Positions 6,165-53,738 of a DNA stretch of 64,000 nucleotides are shown here, piece after piece. The notes under the pieces are model-generated. The model worked only from the letters and a program-made list of their open reading frames with translations, was not told the origin of the DNA and ran no database searches. The stretch is from Elusimicrobiota bacterium. Its GTDB lineage: Bacteria; Elusimicrobiota; Elusimicrobia; UBA1565; UBA9628. Position numbers and translations under genes: made by a program. The DNA is taken from positions 201,261 through 265,260 of the forward strand of contig PLZD01000010.1 of NCBI GenBank assembly GCA_003151975.1, given 5' to 3'. Positions within the stretch are counted from its first letter, which is position 1, and the number at the start of each line of letters is the position of its first letter.

Positions 6165-6650
6165 CTATCGGCAAGGCGTCTCGAAGCGGTAGTAGGCCGG
6201 ATCGGGGACGACGGGCACCCAACGGTCGCGCCCGGGGATTTGGACCGCGCCCCACTCCGTCGCCTCTTCGCGCCCGGCCACCCGGAATCGCGCGCGCACG
6301 GTCCAGAAATACTTGGCGCATGAGGCGAGAGCTTTCTGGAATTGATAGCGGGGGAAAGGGAGGCTGTCGGCCTCGTCGATGAGCCTTCCGGGCGCGCCGT
6401 TTTCCGAAAGATAGACTTTAAGGTCGTAGACGACCCATTTGGCGTCGTCGCGCGGCGGGTAGGCTTCCCAACGCATCATGGGCTTGGTCGACTCGACGGT
6501 CGTGAAGAGGACTTCCTTTCCATGGGCCAGCACCTGGGGATATTCGGGTTTGAGTCCGTAGACCGCGGCGTTCTCCGCGCAGGCGCCAAGACAAAGGATC
6601 AAGACTAGGGGGAGCGCGGATCGGACCTTAGGGTTGCTGGGGGCCCGCAT
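6165..6650 (-). CDS. hypothetical lipoprotein
   Basis: Signal peptide plus lipobox LILCLGAC. Confidence 0.45.
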   Translation of the reverse strand: MRAPSNPKVRSALPLVLILCLGACAENAAVYGLKPEYPQVLAHGKEVLFTTVESTKPMMRWEAYPPRDDAKWVVYDLKVYLSENGAPGRLIDEADSLPFPRYQFQKALASCAKYFWTVRARFRVAGREEATEWGAVQIPGRDRWVPVVPDPAYYRFETPCR

Positions 6651-7567: not shown

Positions 7568-8473
7568 ATGCGCCGCGCGATCATACTCGCCGTCTTCGGC
7601 TCCTGCTTGTGCGCTTGCGAGCCTCCAAAGCAGCCGCCCAAGTTGATCACGCACGACGAGGGCGGGGGCGGCGCGGCGCGCCCGGGATTCACTTACGGCG
7701 GCGGGGGCGGCGGGGGCGGCGCCGACATGGGCTCGACCCAGTTGATCGCCAACAATCCCAAGCTCGCTCCCTTGATTCGTGAGCCGGCGGCCGCTTCGCG
7801 CAAACGCCCCAAGGCCAAGGGCCGCCGCCGTCCGGCCGACGAGGAAATGGACTCCGGCGACATGGGTGATTTTTCCTCCGACGACGACGTCGACGACTCG
7901 ACGCCGACGCCCAAGGCCAAGGAGAATCCCGATCCCGAACCCGCGGGGCCGCTTGTTCAGCGCAAGAGCAAGAGTCTGGACGCAGCTCCCGCCCCGGCCA
8001 ACATCGACACCTCCAATATCAAACCCCTGCCCACGATGAATGGACACGTCAAGTTTCCTCCGCCGCCCGAGGGCGAGGCCGACCAAGAAGAAATCGAGGA
8101 GGCCATGGCCGCCAAGAACACCAAGATGAACATGCCTAAGGACGGCGCGGTCAAGATGGGCGCCGGAGCGGATCTGGCCTTGGACCCCAACTCGCTGGGG
8201 TCCTACCATGTTCAGGTCTCACTGACTCCGTACTTCCGGAACAACGAGATCGACCAAGTCTACGGCTTCGGCACCGATATCCATCTCGAGTATGATCTCG
8301 ACGCCGTGGGCGCGAAGACGGGGAAGTACTTCATCCGCTGGGCGCTGATCGATCTGCTCGACATGGAGCACCCCTTCCACAGGCCCAAGTACTTCAGCTA
8401 CATAGCGCCCTTGGCTAATCCCGAGGAGTCTGGGACTTCCGCAACTCCACCAGGCGCGAGCGGGCCTCGGTGA
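7568..8473 (+). CDS. hypothetical lipoprotein with a Gly-rich, acidic disordered N-terminal region
   Basis: Lipobox LCAC after a signal peptide, then a poly-Gly/low-complexity region and a globular C-terminus. Confidence 0.5.
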   Translation: MRRAIILAVFGSCLCACEPPKQPPKLITHDEGGGGAARPGFTYGGGGGGGGADMGSTQLIANNPKLAPLIREPAAASRKRPKAKGRRRPADEEMDSGDMGDFSSDDDVDDSTPTPKAKENPDPEPAGPLVQRKSKSLDAAPAPANIDTSNIKPLPTMNGHVKFPPPPEGEADQEEIEEAMAAKNTKMNMPKDGAVKMGAGADLALDPNSLGSYHVQVSLTPYFRNNEIDQVYGFGTDIHLEYDLDAVGAKTGKYFIRWALIDLLDMEHPFHRPKYFSYIAPLANPEESGTSATPPGASGPR

Positions 8474-9857
8474 GCAGCTTGGGATCGAGCCGTTTCTCGA
8501 TACTCTCGGCTGACGCCGCGGCGTCGGGGTCCCCTTGCTCGGCCGCGAGCCAGAACCACGCGCAGGCCCAAAGGGTATCGATGACCACGCCGTCGCCGTT
8601 GTAGTACATCACGCCCAGCGCGTTCTGGGCCGCGCCGAGGCCCCCCTCGGCGGAGCGCTTCATCCACGAGAACGCCTCGCGGTCGTCCGGCGCGACTTTC
8701 ATTTGGGCCGCGGTGAGGTCGCCCAAGATGTCCTCGCGGGCGGAGCGGTCTTCTTTCCAGTAGAGCGCGCCGAGGATCGCTTGCGCGGAGTGCTCGCCGC
8801 GCAGGGCCGCGCGGCGCAAGTAAGACAAGCCCGAGGTGAAATCCTGCTCGAGGCCTTGGCCCGTGACGCTCATCATCGCCAGACGAAACAGCGCTTGCGG
8901 CACTTCCTTCTGCGCCGCGCGGCGGTACCACTTGGCGGCTTCGACGTAATCGAGGTCCGTGCCCCAGCCGTGGTCGTAGAGGACGCCGATGTTGTTGGCC
9001 GCCTCGGCCGAGCCGGCGTTTGCGGCCGATTGATACAGAGCCATCGCCGTCTTCATGTCCTTGGGCGCGAGCTTGCCCTCCTGATAGATCCCGGCCAAGG
9101 CGACTTGCGCGTCGGGGACTCCGTCCTTGGCGATTTTCTTAAGCAGCTCGACGAACCTCTTGGCGTCTCCATTTTCGCGGTACTGGAGCACCGCGATGAG
9201 GTAGCCCGCGCGCGCGTTTCCCTTGCGCAGGGATTGCTTGAGAAGATCGAGAGCCTTCTTCGTGTCTTTGGGCGCGCCATACCCGTCGGCAAAGCAAGTG
9301 GCGAGGTTGTACTCCGCCGAGGGATCCCCTTGGGCCGCCGCCTTGGAAAACCACGCGACCGCAAGTTCAGGGTCCTTGGCCACGCCGCGGCCCTCGCGGT
9401 AGAGGACGCCCAAGTTGTATTGCGCCAAGGTTGAGCCGGCATTGGCCGCGAGCTTGAGCAGCGCGACGGCCTTTTCTAGATCGAAATCGATCCCGTCGCC
9501 GGAGAGATAAAGCATCCCCAAGGCGTATTGCGCGGGGGGATAGCCGCGATTGGAGGCGAGCTCGAGAAGCCGCGCGGCTTCCCGGGTATCGCGCGCGACG
9601 CCGCGGCCCAGCGAGTAGAGCGCGCCGAGCCCGTACTGCCCTTGCGGGCTTCCCTGGTCGGACGCTTTCTGGAACCACTTGGCGGCCTCGGCGTCATCGG
9701 CCTTGACGCCCTTGCCCTCGTGATACGCGGCGCCGAGCTCGTACTGCGCCGACGCGTCGCCCGCGGCGGCCTTTGCGCGCAGCGCGGCAACGTTGGCCGC
9801 GCGAACGGGCGAGATCAGAATCAGCGCGAGGAGCGCGAGCAGTGCCTGAGCGAGCAT
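8415..9857 (-). CDS. secreted Sel1-like (TPR-family) repeat protein
   Basis: ~11 repeats of the A.YxLGxxYxxGxGVxxDxxxAxxWxxKAA pattern, with a signal peptide. Confidence 0.8.
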   Translation of the reverse strand: MLAQALLALLALILISPVRAANVAALRAKAAAGDASAQYELGAAYHEGKGVKADDAEAAKWFQKASDQGSPQGQYGLGALYSLGRGVARDTREAARLLELASNRGYPPAQYALGMLYLSGDGIDFDLEKAVALLKLAANAGSTLAQYNLGVLYREGRGVAKDPELAVAWFSKAAAQGDPSAEYNLATCFADGYGAPKDTKKALDLLKQSLRKGNARAGYLIAVLQYRENGDAKRFVELLKKIAKDGVPDAQVALAGIYQEGKLAPKDMKTAMALYQSAANAGSAEAANNIGVLYDHGWGTDLDYVEAAKWYRRAAQKEVPQALFRLAMMSVTGQGLEQDFTSGLSYLRRAALRGEHSAQAILGALYWKEDRSAREDILGDLTAAQMKVAPDDREAFSWMKRSAEGGLGAAQNALGVMYYNGDGVVIDTLWACAWFWLAAEQGDPDAAASAESIEKRLDPKLLTEARSRLVELRKSQTPRD

Positions 9858-10103: not shown

Positions 10104-10339
10104 TCCCACCGCAACTTAGCCCAAGGCCAGTACCGACAAAGCCGCGATCCTTTGCGCCGATGCCTACCCCATCGGCAGCCGCGGCATTCCGGCAGAAAAA
10201 TCCTGAGGCCCAGAGCCCCGCCGCCGTTTCGCTCGGGGTTTTGTTGGGCGACGGGCGCGGGGCTCTGGTGCCTCATAATATATATACGATTGACCCCCCC
10301 AAAATGTTCCACTTTGGGCGCGCGCTCGACGGAGAGATG

Positions 10340-11698
10340 TCAGGGGTTTGCGGACTGCAGGCGGGTGAGCTGGTCCTTAAGCAGGCGCTTGGTTCGCGCC
10401 GAGGCGCCCACTTCGAGCGCCTTGCGGAAGAATTTCACGGCCTGAGCGGTGTCGCCCTCGGCGACAAGGCAGAGCCCGAAGCCCGTGTAGGCGTCGGCCA
10501 CGACCGGGTCGCTCATTCCCAGCTTGGAGGCCAGATTCATCGCCTCGGCATACGAGTATTTCGCTCTGGGGATGTCGCCGTTGAAGCGCGCGATCGTTCC
10601 CATCCGCTCGTGGTACAGGACGCGCAGGCGGTCGTCGGGGGCGAGGAGTGCTGCCGCGGCGTCGAGTTCGGTCGTAGCCGCCTTGAGGTCGCCGGCCTCG
10701 ATGAGTTTCTGCGCGGAGATGAAATGGTTCTCAGGGGTGGCGGGCGTGGAGCCTGACTCGACCGCGGGAGCGGCGGCCTTCGGCGGGGCGCCGCCCCAGC
10801 GAATCGTGGCGCTGACGCGGTTTGAGATACCCAGCGTGCCCAAAGGCGCGATGGCGTAGTCGATCGAGAGGGTCTTCCAAATCCAGCCGACGCCCGCGGT
10901 GATTCCGACGCCGGCGTCGTTGCGCGTGGTAAATCCGAGGCGGAAGGCGATCATCTTGTCGTAGACGGACTCGAGGCCGAAGCCCATGCGGACTTTGTCG
11001 GCCGTCTCACGCGTGACGTCGAGAGCGAAGGTGTTGTCCATCTTGAAGGCGGGGAAGGCGTAGGCCGTTCCCAAGCGCCAGAGCATCGGCAGCCGCTCGC
11101 TATGGCTTGCGAACTTCACGTTGGGGCCCATGTTGAGGATCGAGGCGCCGAAGGTCAGCCCCTTCATCTGCTCGACGGAGTAGAGCGCGCCGGCGTCGAA
11201 GGCGACTCCATTGGCCTGCGTCGTGTCGATGGTCTCGCGAATGAGCTTGGCGCCGCCGCCCAGGCTCAAGGACGGCGTGAGCGCGCGGCCGTAGCCTCCG
11301 GAAAGAGCGAAGTCGTTGAGCCCGAAGGTCGAGCCCGTGCCGCCCGGCTGGGACAAGGTCGTGCGGTTGATGCTCCCGAAGTCGAGGTAGTTCATGCTCA
11401 GGCCCCAGCCTTGCTTGGAGGCAAAGCCCACGTACTCCTGGCTCAGGCCCTGCACGTACTCGTTGTGCATGAAAGTCGCCTCGTAGTTGTCGACCCGCGC
11501 CAGTCCCGCGGGATTGTAGAGCAGGGCGTTGGAGTCGGTCGCCAGGGCCGTGTAAGCGCCGCCCAAGCCCACGGCGCGCGCGTTGGCGTCGATCGTCAGG
11601 AAATCAAACGAGGAGGCGCCGGCGGCGGAATCCGCCCAGGCCCGCGGGCTTGCGCCCGCGAGCACGAGAAACGCCGCCAGCAGCCTCATGGTTCTCAT
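10340..11698 (-). CDS. PorV/UPF0164-like outer-membrane beta-barrel fused to a C-terminal TPR-like domain
   Basis: Signal peptide, then FLTIDANARAVGLGGAYTALATDSNALLYNPAGLA, an N-terminal motif characteristic of the PorV/PorQ/UPF0164 family. Amphipathic beta-strand pattern. TPR-like C-terminus. Confidence 0.5.
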   Translation of the reverse strand: MRTMRLLAAFLVLAGASPRAWADSAAGASSFDFLTIDANARAVGLGGAYTALATDSNALLYNPAGLARVDNYEATFMHNEYVQGLSQEYVGFASKQGWGLSMNYLDFGSINRTTLSQPGGTGSTFGLNDFALSGGYGRALTPSLSLGGGAKLIRETIDTTQANGVAFDAGALYSVEQMKGLTFGASILNMGPNVKFASHSERLPMLWRLGTAYAFPAFKMDNTFALDVTRETADKVRMGFGLESVYDKMIAFRLGFTTRNDAGVGITAGVGWIWKTLSIDYAIAPLGTLGISNRVSATIRWGGAPPKAAAPAVESGSTPATPENHFISAQKLIEAGDLKAATTELDAAAALLAPDDRLRVLYHERMGTIARFNGDIPRAKYSYAEAMNLASKLGMSDPVVADAYTGFGLCLVAEGDTAQAVKFFRKALEVGASARTKRLLKDQLTRLQSANP

Positions 11699-14600
11699 CT
11701 GATGATCGCGATTTTACGCACGACGCTCCTGATACCCGGCGAAGTGATGACCGCCAGGTAGCCTCCCGACGCGACGTCGGCGCCGTCCTGATTCTTGGCG
11801 TCCCAGTGCGTCGTTCCGCTGCCGCTCGACGAGTCGAATTTGGCGACCATCCGGCCCGAGGCGGTGTAGATCGTGATCGTGACCACGCCGGGCAGATTGT
11901 CGAAAACGATGCCGGAGGTCGCATCGCCGAAGCTGAAAGGCTTGCCCTCGTCGGGATTGCCGCCGTTGGGCTTGAACGGATTCGGGTAGACGCGCACCGC
12001 GCTGAGGTCGGCGGACGCCGGGCTGCCGGCGATGATCGCGAAGATGCTGAAGTGCGGCGTAAAGCCCGTGATCGTGTGGCTGGCCAAGTTCACCGTCGAT
12101 GCGAAATCCTTGCTCCACTGACCCGTGTTCGGATTGAGCGAATAGATTTGGAAGGTCTCGGGGAATTGCGCGGTGTCGGGATAAGACAGCGTGATCTCGG
12201 CCAACGACCCGCCCGAGAGATTGTGCTGGCTGTTGTCGAGGTCGACCTCCATCGCCGAGCCCGCGAAGGTCAGGCCCAAAGGGGGGCCCGTCGTGATCGT
12301 CGGATTGCTCGTGACGGTGAAAGTCACGGAGGAGGTATTCAAGGCGCCGGGCGGCAGAACGATGCCGCAGAGCGGGTCCGTCGGCGCGGCGCCGCCGGCG
12401 GAGATATTATTCGTTACGGTGTTGTTTACGACCTGCTGCGTCTGGTCCTTGCCCCCGACCTGGTTCTCGTTGAGCGTCGGCGTCACCGGATCGACGACAA
12501 CGGTGATGGCGCTGGGTGCCGTGTCCGAGCTCCCGTTGACGCCGACGGCCACGACGCGCAGATCATAGCTTCCGGGGGCGACCGCGGTGACATCCCAATG
12601 GATGAAGAACGGGGAGATGGTGTCGGGGTTGGGGTGATTGACGTCGGCGGCCGGAACCATCGCCCACGCGGTCGAACCCGAGACGCGGTACTCGAAGGTC
12701 AACTGCTGGACCTGGTCGGGCGTTCCTGAGACGATCGACGCCGTGATCGTTACGCTGTTGCCGTTGATGTGCTTGCCGGAATCGGGTGACTTGATGGCGG
12801 CGCGGACCGAGGACAAAGTCGCGGTCGCCGCCGCGATTGCGTAGACGCCCGTCGTCTCGGTGGCGCCGCAGCGGTGGGTCGTGCGCAGCGCGAAGGAATA
12901 CGCCGCGGTCGAGGCGAGCACGCCCGTCGTGAAGCTCGTTTGCGGTGAAGCGAGCACCGCCAGCGGCGCGCCGTAGTTGATGGCGCCGGTCCCGGCGTCG
13001 TAATAGAGCGAGTACTGCGTCACGCCTTCGGTCGGCGAGGCGATCCACGACAGCGCGATCTGGCCGCCGGGAAGCGAGTTCGCCGTGAAGCCCGCGGCGG
13101 GCGCGGGCACGGTGTTGGAGGTCAGCACGCTGATGGTCGAGGCGAAGACTGAGGGAACATTCGCGAAGTTCCAGTTGCGCACGCCGTAGTAGTAGGTCGT
13201 GCAGCCAAGCAGGCCCGACGCGACGAACTGCGTCGCGGCGCCCGAGAAGACAGTGGTGAACGTCGCGTCGTTGAGCGAGAATTGGACCTCCGCGGTCGTG
13301 CCCGCGGGATTCGAGTTCAAGAGCCAGCTGATCGTCGCCGAGGTCGCCCAGATCGAAGACGCCGTCGTGCCTGTCGGCGGATTGGCCAAAGTGTAGGCGG
13401 TCGCGGGAGTTGGCGAGAGAGGGCCCCCGCCGCTGGCGTTGTAGCCGATCGTCCGAAGGATGTGCGGCGTGTTCGGCGCCAGGCTGGTCTCCGAGTAGAG
13501 CGTCGTGGTCGTCGCGGCGAGCAAGGTCGGACCGCCCACGTACTCGTAGGCGAGATAGGTCGTCGCGCTCGAGGCCAGCGACCAGCTCCAGTTGATCGCG
13601 GTTGTCGACAGCACGGTCGGAGAAGGCGCGCCGGGCGCGCCGGGAACGGTCGGCAGGGTCTGCTGGGCGCCGATGAAGGTGAAGGGTCCGGCCGCGGCCG
13701 TGGCGACCTGGACGTAGTAGGTCGTGTTCTGGCTCAGCGAAGTATAGGCTTTGAAGAGATTCGTCGTGTTCAGGTATTGATTGCTCGCAAGACCGTTGGG
13801 GAAGGGCCCCGATGAGAGCTGGGTGTAGAAAAGCGTTCCGTTGGGGAAGGTTGAGGTCCAATTGGCGGTCAGGCCGTTGATCGAGACCGCCGTAAACGCG
13901 GCGCCGGTGATTGTCGCCGGCAAGGTTGTGGCCGAGCTCAGGCTGATGAAGGGGCCCGCCGGCGCGGTCGCGACTTCGGCGTAGTAGGTCGAGGCGGCGT
14001 TCAAATTCCCGAAGAGCGCCGAGAGGTTGAACGTGTTCGAGCTTTGGTTTCCGGTAAACGCGTTTGGAAACGCGCCGGAGGAGAACTCGACGTAGTAGAA
14101 CGTGCCGGAGGAGTAGGTCGAGGTCCAGTTGACGGTGACGGTGTTGACGGTGACGACGAAGGCGGCGGGGAAAATCGTCGGCGGCGGCGCGGTCGGCGTG
14201 AAGCCGAGGCTCGTGAAGGGGCCGGCCGGCGCGGTGGCGACTTCGGCGTAGTAGGTCGAGCTGCCGGTCAGGCCCGAGTAAGACGCGCTGAGATTGAGCG
14301 TGTTCGAGCTTTGGTTGCCGGTGTACGCGTTGGGAAACGCCCCCGACGAGAGATTCGTGTAATACAGCGTTCCCGACGAGAACGTCGAGCCCCAATTGGC
14401 CGTGAGCGTGTACGACGAGATCGCGGTGTAGCCGCCGGGCGTGATGAACGGGCCGGCCGGAGTCGTGACGTTTCCGAGACTCGTGAACGGACCCGCGGTC
14501 GCCGTGCCCACTTCCGCGTAGTACTTCACGCTGCCTGCCAGGCCGGTGAAAGGCGCGTCGGTGTTGAAGGTGTTCGAGCTTTGGTTGCCGGTAAAGGTGT

Positions 14601-16737
14601 TGGGGAACACGCCCGTCGAGAGATTGGCGTAATAAAATGAGCCCGGGGGGTAGCTCGACGTCCAGTTGGCCGTCAGATAATTGCTGTTGACGGTGGTGAA
14701 GGCCAGAGCGGAGATGCTCGCGTTGAACGGCACGAGTTTGAAGCCGATGCTGAAGAACGGGCCCGCCGGCGTGGTGGCGACCTGGGCAAAATAGGAGGTG
14801 TTCGGCGTCAGTCCGACGAACGCCACCGAGAGGTTGAGCGTGTTGGAGCTCAAGTTCCCCGTGAACGCGTTGGGAAACGCGCCGGAAGACATTTGCAGGT
14901 AGTAGAGCGTGCCGGCGGAGAAAGTCGAGATCCAGTTCGTCGTCAGCGTCGTGGAGGAGACCCCGGTGAAGGCCGCGCCCACGATCGGATTGGCCAAGGT
15001 CGTCGTTGAGCCGATGCTCGTGAAGGGTCCCGTCGCCGCGGTGCCGACTTCGACGAAGTACGCCGTGCTCGCCGAGAGCCCCGCGAAGTAGGCGTTGAGA
15101 TTAAAGGTGTTGGAGCTTTGATTGCCGGTGAACGCGTTGGGGAAGGCGCCGGAAGAAATCTGGGTGTAGAAGAACGTGCCGCCCGGGAAGGTCGTCGTCC
15201 AATTGGCGGTCAGGATGTTGTAGTTGATGCCGGTGAAGGGCGCGCCCGTGACGGTGTAGGGCAAGGTCGTCGTCGAGCCTATGATCGTGAACGGCCCCGT
15301 CGCCGCCGTCGCGACCTCGACGAAGTACGCCGTGCTTCCCGTGAGCCCCGCGAAGGCCGCGTTGAGGTTGAAGGTGTTCGAGCTTTGGTTTCCCGTGAAC
15401 GCGTTGGGAAACGCGCCGGAGGAGAGCTGGGCGTAGTAGAAGGTTCCGGTCGAGTAAGTCGTCGTCCAGTGGGCGGTTAAGGCGTTGTAGGCGACTGCGG
15501 TGAAGAGGGCGGCGGTGATGGCCGGGCCGGCCAAGGTCGTCGTCGAGCCGAGGCTCGTGAACGGCCCCGTCGCCGCCGTGCCGACCTCGACGAAGTACGC
15601 GGTGCTTGTGGACAGCGCCGTGAAGGCGGCGTTGAGATTGAAGGTGTTGGAGCTTTGGTTGCCGGTGAACGCGTTGGGGAACGCGCCGGATGAGAGTTGA
15701 GCGTAGTAGAACGTTCCAGTGGAGTAAGTCGTGGTCCAATGGGCGGTCAGATAGTTGTTGTTGACGGTGGTGAACGACGCCGCGGTGATGGCCGGGCTGG
15801 TCGTCGTGAAGGTCGAGCTCAGGCTTGTGAAGGGGCCCGCCGCCGCGGTCGCGACCTGGGCGTAGTAGTGTGTGCCTCCCGAAAGCCCCGCGAAGACCGC
15901 GTCGAGGTTGAAGGTATTGGAACTGACGTTCGTTGGAGAGGCGTTGGGGAAAGGGCCGGTTGAAAGCTGCGCGTAATACAAAGTCCCGGTGGAATAAGTC
16001 GTCGTCCAATTGGTGGTGAGGTAGTTGTAGTTGACGGTCGTGAACGACGCGGCGGTGATGGCGGGATTGGCCGATGTCGAGGTCGCGCCAAGACTCGTGA
16101 AAGGCCCCGTCGCCGCGGTCGCCACCTCGACGTAGTAGGCCGTGCTTCCGGACAGTCCCGAGTAGGCGGCGTTGAGGTTGAAGGTGTTCGAACTTTGATT
16201 CCCGGTCCACGAGTTGGGAAACACGTCGGTGGATAGCTGCGTGTAGTAGAGCGTGCCGGCCGGGAAGGTCGAGTTCCAATTCGAGGTCAAGTAGTTAGAG
16301 TTGACCGTGGTGAAGGCGGCGGGGGTGATTGCGGAGGAAGTCTCGGTCGAATAGAGACTCTGGATGGTCCCGCCGGCGGGCAAGGTGGAGACTTGCGCGA
16401 AATAGACCGTGCTGGGAGCAAGCCCAGCGAAGGTCGCGAAGGTGTTATTCGTCGACGAGCTTTGGTTGCCGGCGTAAGCGTTGGGAAACGCCGCCGAGGA
16501 GATTTGCGCGAAATACGTGGTGCCGCCTGCAAAGGTCGAGGACCAATTCGCCGTCGCCGAGACGCCGGTGATCGCGGTGAAAGGCGAGCTCGACAGAGTC
16601 TGGGCGCGGGCTTTGACCGCGCCCGCGGTCAGGAGAGAGACAACGAGAAAAAAAAGAGCCGCCGCGGAGAGCGTCTTCCGCGACCGGCATCGTTCGACGA
16701 CTCGGGGCCTAACCCCCGCGAGATTATCGCTGAGCAT
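11695..16737 (-). CDS. giant (1680 aa) cell-surface repeat protein: ~11 FN3-like tandem repeats, Ig-like region, T9SS-type (FlgD-Ig-like) C-terminal sorting domain
   Basis: Signal peptide. ~95-aa repeats (FTTVNxNYLTANWTTTYSTGTxYYAQLSSGAFPNAFTGNQSSNTFNLNA...). C-terminus VYPNPFKPN...VTITIYTASGRMVAKF...HWDAKNQDGADVASGGYLAVITSPG...RKIAIIR matches the Por_Secre_tail architecture. Confidence 0.75.
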   Translation of the reverse strand: MLSDNLAGVRPRVVERCRSRKTLSAAALFFLVVSLLTAGAVKARAQTLSSSPFTAITGVSATANWSSTFAGGTTYFAQISSAAFPNAYAGNQSSSTNNTFATFAGLAPSTVYFAQVSTLPAGGTIQSLYSTETSSAITPAAFTTVNSNYLTSNWNSTFPAGTLYYTQLSTDVFPNSWTGNQSSNTFNLNAAYSGLSGSTAYYVEVATAATGPFTSLGATSTSANPAITAASFTTVNYNYLTTNWTTTYSTGTLYYAQLSTGPFPNASPTNVSSNTFNLDAVFAGLSGGTHYYAQVATAAAGPFTSLSSTFTTTSPAITAASFTTVNNNYLTAHWTTTYSTGTFYYAQLSSGAFPNAFTGNQSSNTFNLNAAFTALSTSTAYFVEVGTAATGPFTSLGSTTTLAGPAITAALFTAVAYNALTAHWTTTYSTGTFYYAQLSSGAFPNAFTGNQSSNTFNLNAAFAGLTGSTAYFVEVATAATGPFTIIGSTTTLPYTVTGAPFTGINYNILTANWTTTFPGGTFFYTQISSGAFPNAFTGNQSSNTFNLNAYFAGLSASTAYFVEVGTAATGPFTSIGSTTTLANPIVGAAFTGVSSTTLTTNWISTFSAGTLYYLQMSSGAFPNAFTGNLSSNTLNLSVAFVGLTPNTSYFAQVATTPAGPFFSIGFKLVPFNASISALAFTTVNSNYLTANWTSSYPPGSFYYANLSTGVFPNTFTGNQSSNTFNTDAPFTGLAGSVKYYAEVGTATAGPFTSLGNVTTPAGPFITPGGYTAISSYTLTANWGSTFSSGTLYYTNLSSGAFPNAYTGNQSSNTLNLSASYSGLTGSSTYYAEVATAPAGPFTSLGFTPTAPPPTIFPAAFVVTVNTVTVNWTSTYSSGTFYYVEFSSGAFPNAFTGNQSSNTFNLSALFGNLNAASTYYAEVATAPAGPFISLSSATTLPATITGAAFTAVSINGLTANWTSTFPNGTLFYTQLSSGPFPNGLASNQYLNTTNLFKAYTSLSQNTTYYVQVATAAAGPFTFIGAQQTLPTVPGAPGAPSPTVLSTTAINWSWSLASSATTYLAYEYVGGPTLLAATTTTLYSETSLAPNTPHILRTIGYNASGGGPLSPTPATAYTLANPPTGTTASSIWATSATISWLLNSNPAGTTAEVQFSLNDATFTTVFSGAATQFVASGLLGCTTYYYGVRNWNFANVPSVFASTISVLTSNTVPAPAAGFTANSLPGGQIALSWIASPTEGVTQYSLYYDAGTGAINYGAPLAVLASPQTSFTTGVLASTAAYSFALRTTHRCGATETTGVYAIAAATATLSSVRAAIKSPDSGKHINGNSVTITASIVSGTPDQVQQLTFEYRVSGSTAWAMVPAADVNHPNPDTISPFFIHWDVTAVAPGSYDLRVVAVGVNGSSDTAPSAITVVVDPVTPTLNENQVGGKDQTQQVVNNTVTNNISAGGAAPTDPLCGIVLPPGALNTSSVTFTVTSNPTITTGPPLGLTFAGSAMEVDLDNSQHNLSGGSLAEITLSYPDTAQFPETFQIYSLNPNTGQWSKDFASTVNLASHTITGFTPHFSIFAIIAGSPASADLSAVRVYPNPFKPNGGNPDEGKPFSFGDATSGIVFDNLPGVVTITIYTASGRMVAKFDSSSGSGTTHWDAKNQDGADVASGGYLAVITSPGIRSVVRKIAIIR
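13440..16580. repeat. coding tandem repeat array (~285-bp unit, ~11 copies, high nucleotide identity)
   Basis: Near-identical protein repeats. Alternate-frame ORFs (12563-14395, 15101-16279) are shadows of the same periodicity. Confidence 0.7.
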
Positions 16738-16904
16738 TCATTCGGTAGCCTGACCCTCCCCAACCGGGAGTCTTGGCTTTGCGCCCCGGGCTTGCGCCCG
16801 GTTTGCCCTTATCGCCCGCCCTTAACGCGGGGCGGGAGCATCCCCTAAGTATAGCCGGATACCGAGAGCCGTCAAGACCCAACTACGGACATATTAAGAG
16901 GTAC

Positions 16905-25688: not shown

Positions 25689-27815
25689 TTATTGCCCGGC
25701 GTCGCCAGCTGTCGGAGGCTGCTGCGGCGGTTGGCTCTGCTGCGGCGTCGGCACCGGCTTCTTGCGCGGGATCGGCGGGCGGATGGTTTGGGCGCGATAA
25801 TTGTCGCTGTCTCCGCTGAGAGCCGGGAAATAATACTCGGCCGTCTTCTTGATCATCGGGTAGTCGGCGTTCTGCGCATCCGTGATGCCGTCTCTTGAGG
25901 CCAAAATGCCGGCGGTGATCGTCTTGCCGATCTGGAGCTGGCTCGTGCCCAGCAACATCGGAAGCTCGCCGTAAACGCGCGATCGCAGCGTGAACTCGCC
26001 CATAGCGGGCATGACTCCCGTCGCCAGCCCTTGACGGAAAGTCGACACGTTGCTGAGCAGAGAGCTTTCGTACCCCGCGCGGAGGGTGCCGCCGCCGAAG
26101 CCCGAGGCCGTGTTCGCGCCGGCTTCGTAAAGCGAGGTGACTTGCTCCATCCGCGCGACCTGAGGAGCGATGGATGTCATGGCCTCGGCTTTCTGGGCTT
26201 CGGAGAGCAGCGCGAACGATGAGACGCCCGCGCGTCGAGCGTAGCCCTCGAGAAGAGTCGCGCGAACTTGGATCATTTGCAGCGCGTGGACGGGTTCGTG
26301 GGCCTGACCGATGGCAGTATTGACCGTGATGCGGTCAGCCGACACGCTTTCTGCGGCGCCGAGGCTCTTTACGTCCTGCCATGCAGCGCGCAGCTTGCCC
26401 GCGCGGAGATTTTTCGCGAGGCTGCTGCCGTCGGAGACTTCCATTGTGATGCCGTACTTGCCGGCGTATTCCTGCAGCCCCGTCGTCAAAGCTTTCGCCT
26501 GCTTCGTGGCAAGAATGGTCCCGCCTTGTGCCGTGCTCTCCTTGACCACCGTCGTCAATCCCTGTTCGACCACTCGGGCGGCCTCGGCCGCGTGAGCGTC
26601 CGCAGCTACGATGCCCAACGCATCGCCGGTCGCGATGGCCTTCGCGTATGGTAGAGCCTTGCCGGTCACTGTGGCGCCGCGCAGCAGCTCGACGCCCGGG
26701 ATAAAAGTCATGGCGCTTAAGAGCGTATTTCCGCCAACCTTCGCGAGATCCCACGATTGCCTACCCCAAGTGGAGTCGCGATTGTGGTCCCACCGCAGTT
26801 GGTCGCTGCTTTGCTCGACGGCGCCGAAGCCGCTGATGTGGTAGAAGAATTTCATCGTGCCCGCGCCCATGTAAACGGCTGTCGCCATGCCGGGTCCTCG
26901 CTGGCCGTGGTCGACCATCGCGTCGTTGCCCTTCTGCATGTCGTCCCAATACTTCCAAGCGCCGGTCGCCCAGCCGTACTCGAATCCGGGTTGGCCCATT
27001 TGCGGCGCGTCGTGCGAGATCTCCGAAACGGGCGCGGGCACCTTCTTGTTGAGATCCGTCAGGCCGCCCGGCAGCTGCACGCGGGGCATATCCGAAATGT
27101 TCGACAGCTCGGCTTGCGTCAAAGGAGCGTTGGGATTGCGGCGGCCAACGATGACCGCGTTGCCGTTGCCATCGACGAACATCAGTCCGCCGAGGGCTTG
27201 GGCATATTGGCCGGCTTTCGCGGTGACCTGGCTGGAGACCTGCGTGTTGAGTTTGGGATTAGCGAGGACGCGCCGCGCCGCCTCGGCATCCATCGCCAAT
27301 TCTGCCTTTGATTTGTGCGCGGGGGCTCCTTGGCCGCGCACTTTGTCGCGGTAGAGCTTCATCAGCGCCGCTTTCTCATCCGTGCTGGGTTCGCGGCCGA
27401 ATAAAGCTTGAGCGACGATGATGATCGTTTGCTCGTAGACCTCGATTGGATCGGCGGGATCGCGGCCCTGCTGAACCGCGATCGCTTGAGCCTTGCTGTC
27501 ATCGAGGATCTTGAGGCCATTGCGCGCGTCTTGAGGGGAGATCGCTTGACCGGCGGCGTTTGACGCGTCGTCGCGATCGATGGGAGGCAGCTTGCTCGTA
27601 AGTTGACGGAAAATGTCGCCCGTCAAAGCCTGCTCGACGGGCCGCCCTTCGAGATAGGCCTTGGCGGCCTGCGCCTTCGCATCGCGGAAAATCTTGGCGA
27701 AGTCCTGGGATTTGACGGCCCAATCCATTTGAGGCTGGGTCGCGATGGGGCTCTCGGCCATCACTGGCGCGGTTTGGCAGAGGAGCATTGCGAGGACCAA
27801 AGTGCTTTGGCGCAT
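25689..27815 (-). CDS. large secreted hypothetical protein with a Pro/Gln-rich C-terminus
   Basis: Start taken at MRQSTLVLAMLLCQTAPVMA (signal peptide). No recognisable catalytic motif. Confidence 0.5.
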   Translation of the reverse strand: MRQSTLVLAMLLCQTAPVMAESPIATQPQMDWAVKSQDFAKIFRDAKAQAAKAYLEGRPVEQALTGDIFRQLTSKLPPIDRDDASNAAGQAISPQDARNGLKILDDSKAQAIAVQQGRDPADPIEVYEQTIIIVAQALFGREPSTDEKAALMKLYRDKVRGQGAPAHKSKAELAMDAEAARRVLANPKLNTQVSSQVTAKAGQYAQALGGLMFVDGNGNAVIVGRRNPNAPLTQAELSNISDMPRVQLPGGLTDLNKKVPAPVSEISHDAPQMGQPGFEYGWATGAWKYWDDMQKGNDAMVDHGQRGPGMATAVYMGAGTMKFFYHISGFGAVEQSSDQLRWDHNRDSTWGRQSWDLAKVGGNTLLSAMTFIPGVELLRGATVTGKALPYAKAIATGDALGIVAADAHAAEAARVVEQGLTTVVKESTAQGGTILATKQAKALTTGLQEYAGKYGITMEVSDGSSLAKNLRAGKLRAAWQDVKSLGAAESVSADRITVNTAIGQAHEPVHALQMIQVRATLLEGYARRAGVSSFALLSEAQKAEAMTSIAPQVARMEQVTSLYEAGANTASGFGGGTLRAGYESSLLSNVSTFRQGLATGVMPAMGEFTLRSRVYGELPMLLGTSQLQIGKTITAGILASRDGITDAQNADYPMIKKTAEYYFPALSGDSDNYRAQTIRPPIPRKKPVPTPQQSQPPQQPPTAGDAGQ

Positions 27816-27939
27816 AGAGGGGCTCGGCTTCCTTACAGTATTGGGCCGAGAGGGCGATCTGTCAATGACTTTCTTCGATTTTACCGAGGTTTTGTCGAGG
27901 CTGCTGGAACATTTTCGGGGGGTCAATCGTATACTCTTC

Positions 27940-29688
27940 ATGCCTCTCTCATACCTGCGGCGGCCGTTGTTCCTGGCGCTGGTCGTTTACATCGCGGCGC
28001 TCGCCGGGCTGCATGCCGCGGGATTTTTCCGGATCTTCGTTCCGCGGGAGACGCTGGCCTGGCGCGATGAGCCGACAATCTCTCTCGAAGGCGTGATCGC
28101 CTCGCCGCGGCGCGAGGATGGGCGAGGCGTGAAGTTCGTCGTCGCGGAGGCGCGCGTCGCGGGAGTCGACGCGCGGTCGAAGGTCTTGGTCTACTTGCCC
28201 CGCGGCGCGCCGGGAACAGAGGCGTGTCTGCCGGGCCGGACCGTGGCGCTGACGGGCCGCCTGCGCCTGCCGCGCTGGCCGCGCAATCCCGGCGAGTTCG
28301 ACGAACGCGGTTTCCTGTCGGACCGCGGCATCGGCTGGATCATGCAAGCGTCAAGCGTCGAGCCGCTGGGAGCGCCCGTCTCGCCGCGCTGGCGGCTGCT
28401 CGCGGTGGCCGAGAAGGTCCGACTGTCGATGCAAGCGGCCTTCGAGCGCGGATTCGGCGAGACTGACGCGCGTTTGCTGACGGCGGTCACACTCGGCTAC
28501 AAGGCTCCGCTGCCGCGGAGCCTGAACCGCGCGATCCAGGACTCGGGCGCGATGCATCTGCTCGTTCCGAGCGGGGCGAAGGTCGCCTTCGTGCTCTTGT
28601 TCATCGGCTGGATCGCGTCGACGCTCGGGCTTCCGCCGGGCTGGCGTCTGGCCGCGGCCGCGATCGCCGGAGGCTTCTACACGATCATGGTCGGCGGCGA
28701 GCCGCCTTACGCGCGCGCGTATCTCGGCGGCCTGGCGCTCGGTTTGGGCGCGCTCATCGACCGCGAGGCGGGCGCGTTCCAGGCCTTGGTGCTGTCGGCG
28801 TGGATTATTTTACTCGCCGATCCCCGAGCGTTGTTCTCGGCGGGGTTTCAAATGACTTACGCGGCGATGATCGGGCTCATCCTCGCGATGCCGCGCGTCG
28901 ACGCGGGTTTGCCCGGCCGCTGGCCGAAGGCCGCGCGCGGGCTTTGCTGCGTCGCCGCGGTGACAGTGATCGTACAGCTGATGCTGTGGCCGATCTTCGC
29001 GAACACTTTCGGCCGCGCGGCGGCTCTCGGTGCCTGCGCCAATCTCGCGCTCGTGCCGCTGTCGGGAGTGATCCTGGCTGGAGGCTTCATCTATTGGATT
29101 GTCGGACATGGCGCGCCCGTGCTTTCATCGCTTCTCTCCCTGCTTAAGTGGATCTGTTTTCAAGCGTCCAATCTTCCCTGGGCTGCGGTCAACCTCACGC
29201 CACTGACTCCTTGCGAGGTCCTGGCCTACTATCTTTTTGCCGCGGCAATCCTCATCCTTCCGCGACGAAGGATCGCCGCGGTCCTCGCGGCCTCCGCCAT
29301 TACATTCCACATCCTCTCCCTAACGGCCGCGAGGTTTTCAACGGCTCCATTGCATATCGTCTACCTCAGCCTACCGTCCGAGACGGCGGCGCTCGCTTGG
29401 CGTCATGGCAAGACCATTCTGATCGGACCGGCCGAGCCGTCGGCCCCCGTTTACCGCGCGATGAAGGCGCTCGGCGTGCGGCGGCTCGACGAAACCGTCG
29501 CGCTCGCGCAAAACCGCCGATTTTCTCTGTGCGAGGGCGGCGTCTGCTTTCGATTCGACCCGCCGCGCGTCCTACGAGGCTCCGAGGAATTTGATATAAT
29601 CGCTTCTCGCCTCAAGAGATCGTCCCTCGAGGCGTCTACCGATGGCTCTCGAATCGAAATCAAAGAAGCATCAGGAGCACGCCATTAA
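27940..29688 (+). CDS. comEC: ComEC/Rec2-family DNA-uptake channel protein (no MBL domain)
   Basis: DUF4131-like N-terminus plus a multi-TM competence domain. Start at MPLSYL preferred. Confidence 0.7.
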   Translation: MPLSYLRRPLFLALVVYIAALAGLHAAGFFRIFVPRETLAWRDEPTISLEGVIASPRREDGRGVKFVVAEARVAGVDARSKVLVYLPRGAPGTEACLPGRTVALTGRLRLPRWPRNPGEFDERGFLSDRGIGWIMQASSVEPLGAPVSPRWRLLAVAEKVRLSMQAAFERGFGETDARLLTAVTLGYKAPLPRSLNRAIQDSGAMHLLVPSGAKVAFVLLFIGWIASTLGLPPGWRLAAAAIAGGFYTIMVGGEPPYARAYLGGLALGLGALIDREAGAFQALVLSAWIILLADPRALFSAGFQMTYAAMIGLILAMPRVDAGLPGRWPKAARGLCCVAAVTVIVQLMLWPIFANTFGRAAALGACANLALVPLSGVILAGGFIYWIVGHGAPVLSSLLSLLKWICFQASNLPWAAVNLTPLTPCEVLAYYLFAAAILILPRRRIAAVLAASAITFHILSLTAARFSTAPLHIVYLSLPSETAALAWRHGKTILIGPAEPSAPVYRAMKALGVRRLDETVALAQNRRFSLCEGGVCFRFDPPRVLRGSEEFDIIASRLKRSSLEASTDGSRIEIKEASGARH

Positions 29689-30524: not shown

Positions 30525-32183
30525 ATGTTGCGCGAGCTGACGATCAAGAATTTCGCGATCATCGAGAACGAGACCCTGCGCCTCGGCGAGGGGCTCAACG
30601 TGCTGACCGGCGAGACCGGGGCGGGCAAGTCGATCTTGATCGAGGCTTTGGGCTTCCTGCTCGGCGCGCGCGGCTCGTCCTCATGGCTGCGCGCCGGAGC
30701 CGACCGCCTCGAGGTCTCGGGCGTGTTCGACTCGAAGGATTTCCCGAAAGAGATCCGAACGCAATTCAAAATCGCGGGTCCCGTGACCACGATCCGCCGC
30801 GAGCTCGACGCCTCGGGCAAGACGCGCGCGATCATCAACTCGCAGTCGGCCCCGCTTTCCACCTTGGCGTTATTAGGGGAGAGCCTCGTCGATTTTCACG
30901 GCCAGCACGAGCACCAGACTTTGGTCAAATCCTCGGCCCAACTCGCCCTGCTCGACGGCTACGGCGGCCTCATGGAAGAACTGGAGGCGGCGCGCGCGGC
31001 GTACGAGTCCTGGTCGATGCTGTCGGGGGAGCTCGATTCCGCGGCGATGTCCGACGAGGAGCGCCGCAAGCGCATTGAGCTGTCGCGCTTCCAGCTGCAG
31101 GAGCTCTCCGAGGCGAAGCTGAAAGTCGGCGAGGACGAGGAGCTCGAGGCTGCGTTGCCCCGGCTCAAAAACGCCGAGCGCCTGCGCACGCTGGCGGGCG
31201 GCGCCTACGACCTGCTCTACGGCCAGGACGGCTCGATCTTGGGCGGGCTCTTGAAGGCCGAGCGGGCCCTGGCCGAACTCTCGAAGATCGACGAGTCGAT
31301 GCGGGCCACGCACGATTCGCTGGAAACAGCCCGGCTCGCGCTCGAAGACCTCTCTCACGCTCTCGGCGATTACTACGACAAGCTTGGCTCAGATCCCGCC
31401 AAGCTCGATCAGATCATGTCGCGCCAAGACGCCTTGGCGCGCCTCAAGAAAAAATACGGCCCGACCGTCGAGGATCTGCTCGCCGCGCTTGAGAAGGCCG
31501 CGCTCGAGGTCTCGCGCCTGGAGAACTCCGCCGCGACGCTGGGCGAGCTCGAGCAAAAGCTCGCGGAGGCTCAGAAGGTGCTCGACGGCGCCTGCGAGGT
31601 TCTTCATCATGCTCGCCTCAAGGCCGCCCAGTCGCTCGAGGCCAAGCTCTCGAAAGAACTCAAGGTCCTCGGCATGGCGCAGGCGCAGTTCTCGGTCTCG
31701 GTCGAGATGGAAGAGGGCCGCTACACGCGGACCGGGGCGGACGCCGTCGAGTTCATGCTCGCGGCCAACCCCGGCGAACCGATGCGCCCGATCAAGGCCG
31801 TGGCCTCGGGCGGCGAGCTCTCGCGCGTGATGCTCGCCTTGAAAACCGTTTTGGCGCTCGCCGACCGCGTCCCGGTCCTCGTTTTCGACGAGGTCGACGC
31901 CGGCATCGGCGGGGCTGTCGCGCGCGCCGTGGGCCAGAAGCTCGCGGGCCTCGGGCAAAACCGCCAAGTCTTGTGCGTGACGCACCTGCCGCAGGTCGCT
32001 TGCTTCGGCCGCGAGCACTTCCAAGTCATCAAGGAAGTCTCCGGCGGCCGTACGAAAGTCGGCGTCACTCGCCTCGACGGGAAGAACCGCCTCGAGGCCA
32101 TCGCTTTGATGCTCGGCGGCCGCGAGGCCACGCCGGCTAGCCGCAAACACGCCCAGGAATTATTGGAGAGCTCGAGCGCATGA
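30525..32183 (+). CDS. recN: DNA repair protein RecN
   Basis: N-terminal Walker A GETGAGKS, long coiled coil, C-terminal signature/Walker B. Confidence 0.85.
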   Translation: MLRELTIKNFAIIENETLRLGEGLNVLTGETGAGKSILIEALGFLLGARGSSSWLRAGADRLEVSGVFDSKDFPKEIRTQFKIAGPVTTIRRELDASGKTRAIINSQSAPLSTLALLGESLVDFHGQHEHQTLVKSSAQLALLDGYGGLMEELEAARAAYESWSMLSGELDSAAMSDEERRKRIELSRFQLQELSEAKLKVGEDEELEAALPRLKNAERLRTLAGGAYDLLYGQDGSILGGLLKAERALAELSKIDESMRATHDSLETARLALEDLSHALGDYYDKLGSDPAKLDQIMSRQDALARLKKKYGPTVEDLLAALEKAALEVSRLENSAATLGELEQKLAEAQKVLDGACEVLHHARLKAAQSLEAKLSKELKVLGMAQAQFSVSVEMEEGRYTRTGADAVEFMLAANPGEPMRPIKAVASGGELSRVMLALKTVLALADRVPVLVFDEVDAGIGGAVARAVGQKLAGLGQNRQVLCVTHLPQVACFGREHFQVIKEVSGGRTKVGVTRLDGKNRLEAIALMLGGREATPASRKHAQELLESSSA

Positions 32184-32269
32184 GGAAAGGGGTTAGGCGT
32201 AGTGGAAAACAAGCACGAAAGTCTCGGCCGACCCGGCTAAGAGCATTTCGCCCGAATACGAAGAGCGGG

Positions 32270-33235
32270 ATGTGGGCCACGGGAGATATTTCTAAAACAG
32301 GAATTGTCTTCGACGCTGACGGCACGAGGGTTCCGCATCCGATTCCTTATCAAGGCAGCAAGCGAAATCTGTCTTCACAAATTCTATCGTACTTTCCCAA
32401 TCACATCAGCACCCTTATTGAACCGTTTGTTGGTTCGGGTGCGATTACTCTTGCTGCGGCTGTACGCGGCTTGGCTGAAAACTACCACTTGAATGACCTC
32501 AATGCACCTCTTGTAGAACTGTGGCGGACTATTATCGAAGAGCCGAATAAATTAGCAAAGAAGTACGAAACGATTTGGCACGAACAACACGCTGACCGCC
32601 GCGAGTATTATTGCGAAGTTCGTAACGAATTCAACCACACGCGTAAGCCCCACCACTTTCTCTACCTGCTGGCTCGGTGCGTCAAGGCTTCTGTTCGGTA
32701 TAACTCGAAGGGTGAATTTAACCAGAGTCCCGATAATCGGAGAATGGGAGCAATGCCTTCGACGATGCGGGATCATGTTCTCGGCGCCTCCTATCTGTTA
32801 AGAGGTAAGGCGAAATGTACCGCTGAGGACTATAAGACTCTTGTGCAACGCGCCAGTGCTGAGGATCTCGTTTACATGGATCCACCCTATCAGGGGGTAT
32901 CGGGTGATCGCGACTCTCGATATCTGAGGGGGGTACCCTTTGATGAATTTGTCGAAGTTTTACGCGATCTGAATAAACGTCAGATAAGCTACATCGTGAG
33001 TTACGATGGGCGGACCGGTGATAAGATCCACGGACGGACGCTGCCGCACACACTGCAGCTCAAGCACATTGAATTAGCAGCGGGACGATCGTCGCAAGAA
33101 ACGCTCTTGGGAAGAACGGCTGTCACCTACGAATCTCTTTACCTTTCTCCAGCACTAGAAAAGCGACTTGGGCCTTCTCGCACGCATTGCAAGGCAACAG
33201 TTGAGCAACTTGTGTTACTTGGGGCAAGCAGGTGA
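32270..33235 (+). CDS. Dam-family (D12 class) N6-adenine DNA methyltransferase
   Basis: PYQGSKRNL (Y.GGK-like AdoMet motif) and the DPPY catalytic motif (VYMDPPYQG). Lower GC than flanks. Start ambiguous (32180 or 32270). Confidence 0.7.
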   Translation: MWATGDISKTGIVFDADGTRVPHPIPYQGSKRNLSSQILSYFPNHISTLIEPFVGSGAITLAAAVRGLAENYHLNDLNAPLVELWRTIIEEPNKLAKKYETIWHEQHADRREYYCEVRNEFNHTRKPHHFLYLLARCVKASVRYNSKGEFNQSPDNRRMGAMPSTMRDHVLGASYLLRGKAKCTAEDYKTLVQRASAEDLVYMDPPYQGVSGDRDSRYLRGVPFDEFVEVLRDLNKRQISYIVSYDGRTGDKIHGRTLPHTLQLKHIELAAGRSSQETLLGRTAVTYESLYLSPALEKRLGPSRTHCKATVEQLVLLGASR

Positions 33236-35443: not shown

Positions 35444-35456
35444 AACCCTTCTGCCG

Positions 35457-36341: not shown

Positions 36342-36345
36342 CATC

Positions 36346-36735: not shown

Positions 36736-36837
36736 CGGTCTCAACTAATCCTCAAATTTCCCCCTAGGCCTTTTTGGGCCTTGCGGATTTTTCGGAACTG
36801 ATATAACATGAGGCTTACGATCTTAAGGGGCTCTAAC

Positions 36838-41076: not shown

Positions 41077-41103
41077 CCTCTAAAGGAAGGGACCGCTCCG
41101 GCA

Positions 41104-41132
41104 TTGACAAACCGCGGTTTGGAGGTTACTCT
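41104..41132 (+). promoter_or_regulatory. candidate sigma70 promoter of pilB (TTGACA -17 nt- TACTCT)
   Basis: Consensus -35 hexamer with 17-nt spacing. AAGGA RBS just before the ATG at 41145. Confidence 0.4.
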
Positions 41133-41144
41133 TCTAATTAAGGA

Positions 41145-42923: not shown

Positions 42924-42938
42924 GCAAAAGGAAAAATT

Positions 42939-44015: not shown

Positions 44016-44039
44016 GTACACTGAAGACAGAGGTGTCAT

Positions 44040-51228: not shown

Positions 51229-53738
<2,510 letters not shown>

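Follow-up and report, generated by a model that had tools for sequence, protein, structure and literature searches.

Two overlapping genes on an Elusimicrobiota scaffold

[quoted passage not shown] Our analysis suggests that the two probably form a cassette in which the barrel is a dedicated surface receptor or anchor for the giant protein. The giant (cargo) gene occupies positions 11695..16737 (-), stop codon included, and codes for 1680 amino acids. The barrel gene, at 10340..11698 (-), codes for a 452-residue protein in which a PorV/PorQ-family barrel is fused to tetratricopeptide repeats (TPR). Gene calls on the public contig, a metagenome scaffold of 522 kb, give the same two open reading frames (ORFs). 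Their positions and lengths are as reported in a first-pass annotation of this DNA, and the C-terminal strings that it quoted from the giant protein are present in the translation.

That annotation placed the barrel gene immediately downstream on the same strand, and in fact the two genes overlap. The giant gene ends in ...ATC ATC AGA TGA and the ATG of the barrel gene lies inside AGATGA, so the stop and start codons share the 4 nt ATGA (11695..11698 (-)). To judge from this sequence, the giant and barrel genes are translationally coupled.

Alignment with its relatives indicates that the giant protein consists of a variable head on a conserved stalk (~530 residues), followed by a C-terminal domain (CTD) of 112 residues. 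Residues 1-46 (16600..16737 (-)) form a putative signal peptide region ending in ...LLTAGAVKARA|Q, which we read directly from the sequence; the N-terminal motif M..N..AG.RPR is conserved in the relative L002. The variable part, or passenger, is made up of 11 tandem fn3-like repeats of ~90 residues each (residues 48-1035; 13633..16596 (-)). A phmmer self-search with one repeat unit gave 11 matches of 45-171 bits, and the Pfam fn3 model scores 45 bits on the protein. The stalk (residues ~1036-1568; 12034..13632 (-)), as delimited by alignment, comprises divergent fn3 domains, an immunoglobulin (Ig)-like domain and a domain ending in TPHFSIFA. The CTD (residues 1569-1680; 11698..12033 (-)) ends in ...AIIR. 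Over its ~645 C-terminal residues the protein has 44-54% identity to other Elusimicrobiota giants with different passengers, and in relatives the fn3-like repeats are replaced by Kelch propellers or Big_2 domains.

The C-terminal domain and its barrel partner

The first-pass annotation regarded the CTD as a type IX secretion system (T9SS) sorting domain, and proposed to check both proteins with the hidden Markov models (HMMs) TIGR04183 and PF19572. Both models score below their cutoffs: TIGR04183 gives 20.7-20.9 bits on the CTD (cutoff 23; E = 3e-4), and PF19572, the Pfam PorV model, gives 16.8 bits on the barrel (gathering score 27). Pfam FlgD_ig also falls short on the CTD (25.5 bits; gathering score 27), so the domain is not a T9SS type A sorting domain by the curated cutoffs. 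Yet significant matches exist for both proteins, to the NCBIfam family NF033709 for the barrel (described below) and to PorZ for the CTD: the CTD aligns with the last 93 positions of the PorZ model at 43 bits (E = 2e-11). All 32 members of the CTD family that we tested have matches to both models, with best E values of 9e-19 for the C-terminus of PorZ and 4e-8 for TIGR04183, and one CTD homologue is named 'T9SS type A sorting domain-containing protein' by NCBI.

Structure comparisons point in the same direction. Searched against PDB, the CTD family profile found only PorZ (5m11, E = 2e-8) and PorU (6za2). Its alignment with PorZ reaches the last residue, with ...FAVIR at the end of PorZ and ...[ILV][ILV]R at the end of the family (...AIIR here); compared to PorZ, the Elusimicrobiota CTD has an insertion of ~14 residues (KPNGGNPDEGKPFS...). 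An AlphaFold2 (AF2) model of the CTD (predicted local distance difference test, pLDDT, 88.6) is a seven-strand sandwich. With this model as the Foldseek query, PorZ 5m11 was the top match (E = 6.7e-7, 29% identity), followed by PorU 6za2 (E = 4e-4), and both rank above the CTDs of cleaved substrates and FlgD; among its other matches are the CTDs of T9SS substrates (8glk_D and 8gl6_D) and of RgpB. The protein can thus be described, from the AF2 model and a signal peptide recognized by eye, as a predicted Sec-exported protein with an Ig-like sandwich of ~7 strands at its extreme C-terminus. By sequence and by modelled fold this CTD is closest to PorZ and then to PorU, and we classify it as PorZ-type. 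Likeness to PorZ beyond the CTD found no support, because giants with Kelch propellers (L005 and L006) match PorZ only in their last ~70 residues.

When a word index was queried with just the CTD, in lengths of 125 and 250 residues, it returned only 5 and 10 short fragments, missing the short domain where it sits on giant proteins; an exhaustive HMMER search and a genome scan took its place. At E <= 1e-3 the HMMER search yielded 3,499 cluster representatives, 462 of which reach E <= 1e-10. In the 150 matches listed, which are proteins of up to 5,913 residues, the CTD match ends no more than 1 residue from the C-terminus, with the exception of P0185.

The barrel protein is assigned to the PorV/PorQ family by NF033709 with 165.1 bits (cutoff 90; E = 2.9e-48), its residues 30-299 aligning to positions 3-324 of the 326-position profile. 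The equivalog models all score under their cutoffs, in the order PorQ (NF033711, 106.5 bits; cutoff 220; only residues 7-215 aligned), PorV (NF033710, 74.2 bits; cutoff 250) and PorV2 (63.7 bits). This ranking, as well as the NF033709 match, holds in all 70 aligned homologues. The PorP/SprF model TIGR03519 gives 15.3 bits (cutoff 90.55) and reaches E <= 1e-3 in only 6 of the 70 homologues, and no homology to DUF560 or Omp85 was seen in HMM scans of the barrel. We found 234 barrel homologues at E <= 1e-5; among the best 120, every one with a named source is from Elusimicrobia, and the NCBI pipeline names such homologues 'PorV/PorQ family protein'. The best non-self match is 76% identical and comes from a groundwater Elusimicrobia metagenome-assembled genome (MAG) with which some synteny is shared.

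An AF2 model of the barrel protein, built on the homologue alignment (pLDDT 92), predicts a signal peptide, short helices at residues 32-68 that form a plug, 14-15 strands at residues 72-301 (counted by DSSP), a disordered linker, and seven TPR helices at residues 322-450. The plug and the ~14-strand barrel together make up residues 27-303 (10790..11620 (-)), which include an invariant Y61-N62-P63. In Foldseek searches of PDB the top match was PorV in a complex of SprA, PorV and the RemA CTD (8gl6_F; E = 1.9e-15, 20% identity), and the only non-TPR match among the 60 best shown for the barrel sequence profile was also PorV (6h3i_F, E = 5e-21). The annotation's view of the protein as a PorV-family barrel fused to TPR repeats is therefore well supported, though the equivalog scores place it nearer to PorQ.

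Since the modelled barrel, with ~14 strands and an N-terminal plug, has the FadL type of fold, we considered whether it is a FadL-type channel for hydrophobic substrates, next to the giant gene for reasons unrelated to the sorting of the giant protein. The annotation had named membership of the FadL/OmpP1 family, or a lack of significant HMM matches, as results that would speak against its proposal. FadL family members do come next after PorV in the Foldseek search (FadL, TodX and CymD, E = 6e-10 to 1e-7), the hatch motif has an invariant N-P, and Pfam UPF0164 matches above its gathering score (31.5 bits; gathering score 21.4), if only over the N-terminal half of its profile. The UPF0164 'FadL-like' outer-membrane proteins TP0548, TP0859 and TP0865 of Treponema pallidum also resemble our protein in joining a barrel to a periplasmic TPR-containing helical bundle (PMC8407342), but they have been proposed to import nutrients, with no CTD partner described, and their assignment is itself model-based. 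PorV is the better match by both structure and sequence, and Pfam Toluene_X (FadL/OmpP1) has no match to the barrel at E <= 0.1, so the fold class is shared but the family is not. Moreover, an import channel explains neither the near-universal ATGA coupling to one type of CTD nor the presence of several diverged pairs per genome (both described below). We consider this explanation highly improbable.

The C-terminal TPR domain (residues 320-450; 10349..10741 (-)) scores 34 bits with Pfam TPR_12 (gathering score 30.1), and TPR structures were matched in both the Foldseek and the profile searches. It is probably periplasmic, because it comes after the final strand of a barrel with an even number of strands. 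Of 54 partner barrels, 26 carry a TPR extension; as it is dispensable in half of the family, we treat it as an accessory adaptor. In some family members it resembles TPR domains of chaperone or pilotin type (SycD/LcrH, PilW/PilF). The idea that the TPR domain reads the ...[ILV][ILV]R-COOH tail of the giant protein is unsupported, the tails being alike for partner barrels with and without a TPR domain.

The matches described so far allow two readings of the pair. The CTDs of PorU and PorZ stay uncleaved. At the cell surface PorU is held by PorV and PorZ by PorQ, and the PorQ-PorZ complex does not depend on PorU or PorV to form (PMC10947112; PMC12365241). Because the barrel is most like PorQ and the CTD most like PorZ, stable docking of the CTD on the barrel seems a better model for the Elusimicrobiota pair than a transient shuttle-and-cleave route. 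The other reading, which is closer to the annotation, is that the barrel is a PorV-like shuttle that takes CTD cargo from a translocon to a sortase-type step, where the CTD is cleaved and the cargo is linked to lipid or polysaccharide, with a fuller, divergent T9SS located elsewhere in the genome. It has in its favor that the PorV in the barrel's top structural match is in complex with SprA and a substrate CTD, that the CTD family does match TIGR04183, that NCBI named one homologue as a sorting-domain protein, and that a small-residue-rich linker stands N-terminal of the CTD in the giant protein. The scores, however, prefer PorQ to PorV for the barrel, and the CTDs of PorZ and PorU to those of cleaved cargo.

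Pairing across genomes and a proposed dedicated anchor

By way of the barrel homologues we reached five independent contigs, and on all of them the barrel gene starts 4 nt before the stop of a gene for a CTD protein of 1,134-1,951 residues. Species-representative genomes, scanned with the CTD alignment, then gave 69 loci in 53 assemblies, nearly all of them Elusimicrobiota. Using HMMs made from our own alignments, we found that a barrel starts within 800 bp downstream of 58 of the 69 CTD occurrences, as a rule 66-90 nt away when measured in domain coordinates. Of 61 pairs, 52 have ATGA at the junction and another 4 have GTGA, which makes 56 together.

Nine of the 11 exceptions are in one low-GC genome, MGVC01 (Elusimicrobia RIFOXYA2_FULL_39_19), and in three exceptions (L050, L051 and L060, from this genome) the barrel is immediately upstream of the CTD gene. 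The loci in this genome (L050-L053, L056 and L058-L060) are tandem arrays of CTD genes, with a barrel that is often upstream or common to several giants, and unannotated ORFs of 370-400 codons are interspersed in them. We looked for a divergent barrel at the exceptions, but the downstream genes code instead for a BamB-like propeller or a LacI/GntR-type regulator.

All-against-all clustering of the 475 ORFs at 72 loci (~12-21 kb each) showed that just two families, those of the giant and of the barrel, are present in more than five loci. No third conserved component and no linked T9SS gene (including any PorU-like gene) recurs across the 72 loci; the cassette is self-contained, and its genomic surroundings are unrelated from one locus to the next. 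As a third component we considered a Peptidase_MA_2-like gene, which lies upstream of the giant gene in only five loci. At L004 (CP096137.1; 2579-5214) a second, barrel-only PorV/PorQ-family gene (298 codons) follows two small ORFs, one of them with a ZU5 domain, and is itself followed by a Peptidase_MA_2-like gene of 315 codons; a member of the same family is also present at L005 (3476-4417). In three loci a pair of tRNA genes lies directly after a barrel-only partner gene (L048, 7289-7437; L072, 7319-7470; L073, 7273-7421), possibly marking integration hot-spots, and in L033 there is a group II intron domain near the cassette (10637-10805).

At least seven assemblies have more than one locus, this being a lower bound because the scan used a single narrow peptide pattern, and some genomes have 2-4 pairs. 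Paralogous pairs within a genome have diverged considerably, with 44-63% identity between CTDs and 36-63% between barrels. Across 59 pairs, CTD divergence is strongly correlated with barrel divergence (Mantel r = 0.87, a value that 0 of 999 permutations reached), which fits co-evolution of cognate partners. The same CTD also occurs on contigs from MAGs binned as Lindowbacteria, Nitrospirae, Clostridia and Eisenbacteria (L057, L066, L067 and L075), and a barrel adjoins it in L057, L066 and L067; this reflects either real spread beyond Elusimicrobiota or mis-binning. The results bear out one part of the first-pass proposal, that a dedicated barrel-cargo pair is present outside Bacteroidota: 58 of 69 loci are coupled, no other neighbor is conserved, and some genomes contain several diverged pairs.

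A different part of that proposal, a PorV role for the barrel as general cargo shuttle, is not borne out. The PorV of Flavobacterium johnsoniae and Porphyromonas gingivalis is the best structural match of our barrel and has the family HMM, the N-terminal plug and the ~14 strands in common with it, but PorV serves every type A cargo in its cell, without gene-by-gene pairing. In Elusimicrobiota there is one barrel per cargo gene, and in some genomes 2-4 diverged pairs, in place of a single shuttle for many CTD cargos. Nor is a PorU-like or other T9SS gene linked to the cassette, either in the 72 loci or in the 64-kb window, and the TXSScan survey, an old one in which Elusimicrobia are not mentioned, found T9SS in Bacteroidetes only (PMC4793230). 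Homology favors uncleaved anchoring of the PorQ-PorZ type, and we regard a shuttle-and-cleave role as distinctly unlikely.

The self-contained nature of the cassette raises another option, namely that the barrel, with or without its TPR domain, is itself the outer-membrane translocator of the giant protein, making a two-partner system without SprA in which the CTD then stays docked. The many genomic contexts with no third conserved gene fit this idea, as do the coupling, which suggests strict co-production of giant and barrel, the resemblance of some TPR domains to chaperones and pilotins, and the report of T9SS cores from Bacteroidetes only (PMC4793230). There is a precedent in type 11 secretion (Slam/DUF560), which likewise combines a periplasmic TPR domain with a 14-strand barrel, next to the gene of a cargo whose C-terminal domain directs its targeting (PMC8406197; PMC9100927). 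That system is proteobacterial, however, and its barrel family is unrelated to ours; the TPR domain is N-terminal in Slam and C-terminal here, and the cargo signal is an eight-strand barrel and not an Ig-like CTD. The Elusimicrobiota barrel is small (~275 residues) and is modelled with an N-terminal plug like those of FadL and PorV, it has no DUF560 or Omp85 homology, and half of the partner barrels have no TPR domain. No member of the PorV/PorQ family is known to translocate protein alone. We judge it unlikely that the barrel is the translocator.

We favor, with a probability of roughly 60%, the interpretation that the cassette consists of an adhesin and its dedicated barrel receptor or anchor, following the logic of PorQ-PorZ or SprF-SprB and not that of a general PorV shuttle. 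The analogy draws on a partner that, by sequence and predicted fold, carries a PorZ-type CTD, as do all the family members tested. In this scheme the giant, adhesin-like protein would be exported by Sec, and the barrel would be translated from the same mRNA through the ATGA coupling and would capture its cognate CTD at the outer membrane. The uncleaved CTD would stay docked on the barrel and anchor the adhesin non-covalently to the surface, with the stalk and the variable repeat head pointing outward from the cell. The TPR tail could act in the periplasm as an optional adaptor that serves chaperoning or docking, and in the lineage of the window, expression may be gated by a riboswitch of cyclic di-GMP (c-di-GMP) type. 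The gene structure, homologies, folds, conserved pairing, coupling and multiple diverged pairs are shown by the analysis; CTD-barrel binding, CTD retention, surface exposure and the periplasmic location of the TPR domain are inferred.

Compared to PorQ-PorZ and PorV-PorU of P. gingivalis, the likeness lies in a PorV/PorQ-family barrel that scores highest with PorQ and a CTD that is nearest to PorZ and then to PorU. The differences are that a giant repeat adhesin takes the place of the double propeller of PorZ, which binds anionic lipopolysaccharide (A-LPS), with similarity confined to the CTD; that the barrel has fewer residues than PorV and often a TPR tail; that the genes form a coupled two-gene cassette present in several copies per genome; and that the phylum is Elusimicrobiota, where the system is known from these two genes. 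SprB-SprF, PG1035-PorP and the Fjoh pairs (type B) provide a parallel in gene organization: each CTD cargo, a giant adhesin, has one dedicated barrel coded by an adjacent gene. In the type B systems the CTD adhesins are paired with adjacently encoded, cognate PorP/SprF barrels, which are required for both secretion and surface anchorage (PMC9143113; PMC12618676). The barrel family is different there, though (TIGR03519 gives only 15 bits on ours), and the CTD here is not of type B. The PorP of P. gingivalis also works with a separate periplasmic TPR-containing protein, PorE, whereas in the cassette the TPR domain is fused to the barrel.

Several observations weigh against a dedicated anchor. 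The CTD misses the TIGR04183 cutoff by 2 bits, and the barrel is below the equivalog cutoffs of both PorQ and PorV. Pairing one to one is not universal, since in MGVC01 the CTD genes are in arrays, with fewer barrels and in another order. The Mantel correlation is also expected from co-inheritance of adjacent genes. About half of the partner barrels lack a TPR domain, which therefore cannot be essential to the core mechanism. PorZ in Bacteroidota needs the Sov/SprA translocon, and none was identified in the 64-kb window or as a recurrent gene at the 72 loci; within the window, no T9SS-core Pfam family was recorded on any called gene.

Going further, the cassette could be a self-sufficient module for CTD-dependent export and anchoring, with no need of SprA, PorKLMN or PorU, in which the PorQ-like barrel, aided by its TPR domain in the periplasm, would both carry its cognate adhesin through the outer membrane and keep it there. 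This would be a hitherto unrecognized two-partner secretion route in Elusimicrobiota and a few neighboring candidate phyla. We put this forward as speculation that is unlikely to be right. Such a module might be a relic or a precursor of the barrel-CTD docking step behind the T9SS attachment complex of Bacteroidota.

To our knowledge, T9SS is regarded as specific to Bacteroidota, and the docking of PorQ-PorZ and PorV-PorU is understood only within a 20-protein machine. In Elusimicrobiota the same two parts, a PorV/PorQ-family barrel and a PorZ-type CTD, stand alone on giant, variable surface proteins of a deep-branching and largely uncultured phylum. The parts belong to known families. Our literature search found no paper that links Elusimicrobia with PorV, T9SS or CTD proteins, and as far as the searchable literature shows, the arrangement has not been described: a PorZ-type CTD and its own PorQ-like barrel, coupled, in multiple copies, with frequent TPR fusion, across a phylum in which no T9SS is described. 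Even with a barrel that does no more than anchor, the cassette would serve as a simple predictor of the adhesins and surface proteome of Elusimicrobiota, and its many natural cognate pairs would permit the dissection of CTD-barrel recognition. If these genomes have no SprA-type translocon, it would represent a new minimal secretion route and offer a view of how T9SS was assembled in evolution.

A candidate riboswitch and the surrounding window

Directly upstream of the giant gene, Rfam searches identified a predicted aptamer of the c-di-GMP-I riboswitch type (16740..16816 (-)), which ends 3 nt before the ATG. The best model is RF03167, the GGC variant (59.8 bits; gathering score 59; E = 1.4e-11), and this covariance score places it in the c-di-GMP-I riboswitch clan CL00126. 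The 76%-identical relative L002 has the same aptamer at the same position (6521-6597; 61.2 bits with RF03167), with a compensatory G-C/C-G swap in a stem between the two sequences. At a distant MAG locus (L068, 3708-3790) we found a canonical c-di-GMP-I aptamer (RF01051, 66.7 bits; gathering score 35), again 3 nt before the gene for a CTD protein. No riboswitch aptamer was found at 27 other scanned loci. A consensus scan also found a promoter-like sequence upstream of the riboswitch in the window, TTGACG-16 nt-TATACT (16848..16875 (-)), which is called so for matching the consensus at 10 of 12 positions.

Riboswitches for c-di-GMP are well known upstream of adhesin and pilus genes. The cassette resembles these c-di-GMP-I (GEMM-I) cases in having the aptamer directly upstream of a giant surface-protein gene, and differs in that its best model is the GGC variant, just above the gathering score, with no recognizable expression platform; we know of no established ligand for this variant. 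At the three loci with aptamers we saw neither a Shine-Dalgarno-like sequence nor a conserved expression platform. A terminator-like hairpin followed by T8 in the signal-peptide codons (16661-16684 (-), ~55 nt after the aptamer) was considered as an expression platform and set aside, because L002 lacks the Phe-Phe codons and the T-run; it is probably due to chance, but could be a lineage-specific expression platform. Riboswitch control of the cassette, as predicted from covariance models, appears to be sporadic, but it fits a role in adhesion and would tie the module to a switch between lifestyles, toward sessile or adhesive growth.

On the other side of the cassette, 120 nt past the barrel gene, a pattern scan found a terminator-like hairpin (10205..10219 (-)); such hairpins are no more frequent in the scan than in shuffled sequence, which makes this one weak evidence for a terminator. 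Farther along this strand, at 8415-9857 (-) and ~480 bp past the barrel gene, another gene codes for a Sel1-like repeat protein of 480 amino acids with partial matches to the MerG, AlgK, MotX and ExoR models. We ruled it out as a member of the cassette because it is not conserved beside it at other loci.

Elsewhere in the window, a stretch at ~32000-37000 has a low GC content (0.52-0.59, compared to 0.61-0.69 elsewhere). It contains genes for a D12-class adenine methyltransferase, an unannotated ORF product of 247 amino acids, a class-I tRNA synthetase and a HATPase_c plus DUF4325 pair, and is possibly a horizontally acquired island with a module resembling restriction-modification or defence systems. 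A cluster of ATPase genes of type IV pilus or type II secretion system kind (MshEN+T2SSE, T2SSE and T2SSF) and a gene for a CsgG-family lipoprotein with two small unannotated neighbors are located at ~41100-45300 and 53600-54900. Several large ORFs in the window have no Pfam match, for example those at 25689-27941, 38806-41076 and 46504-48015.

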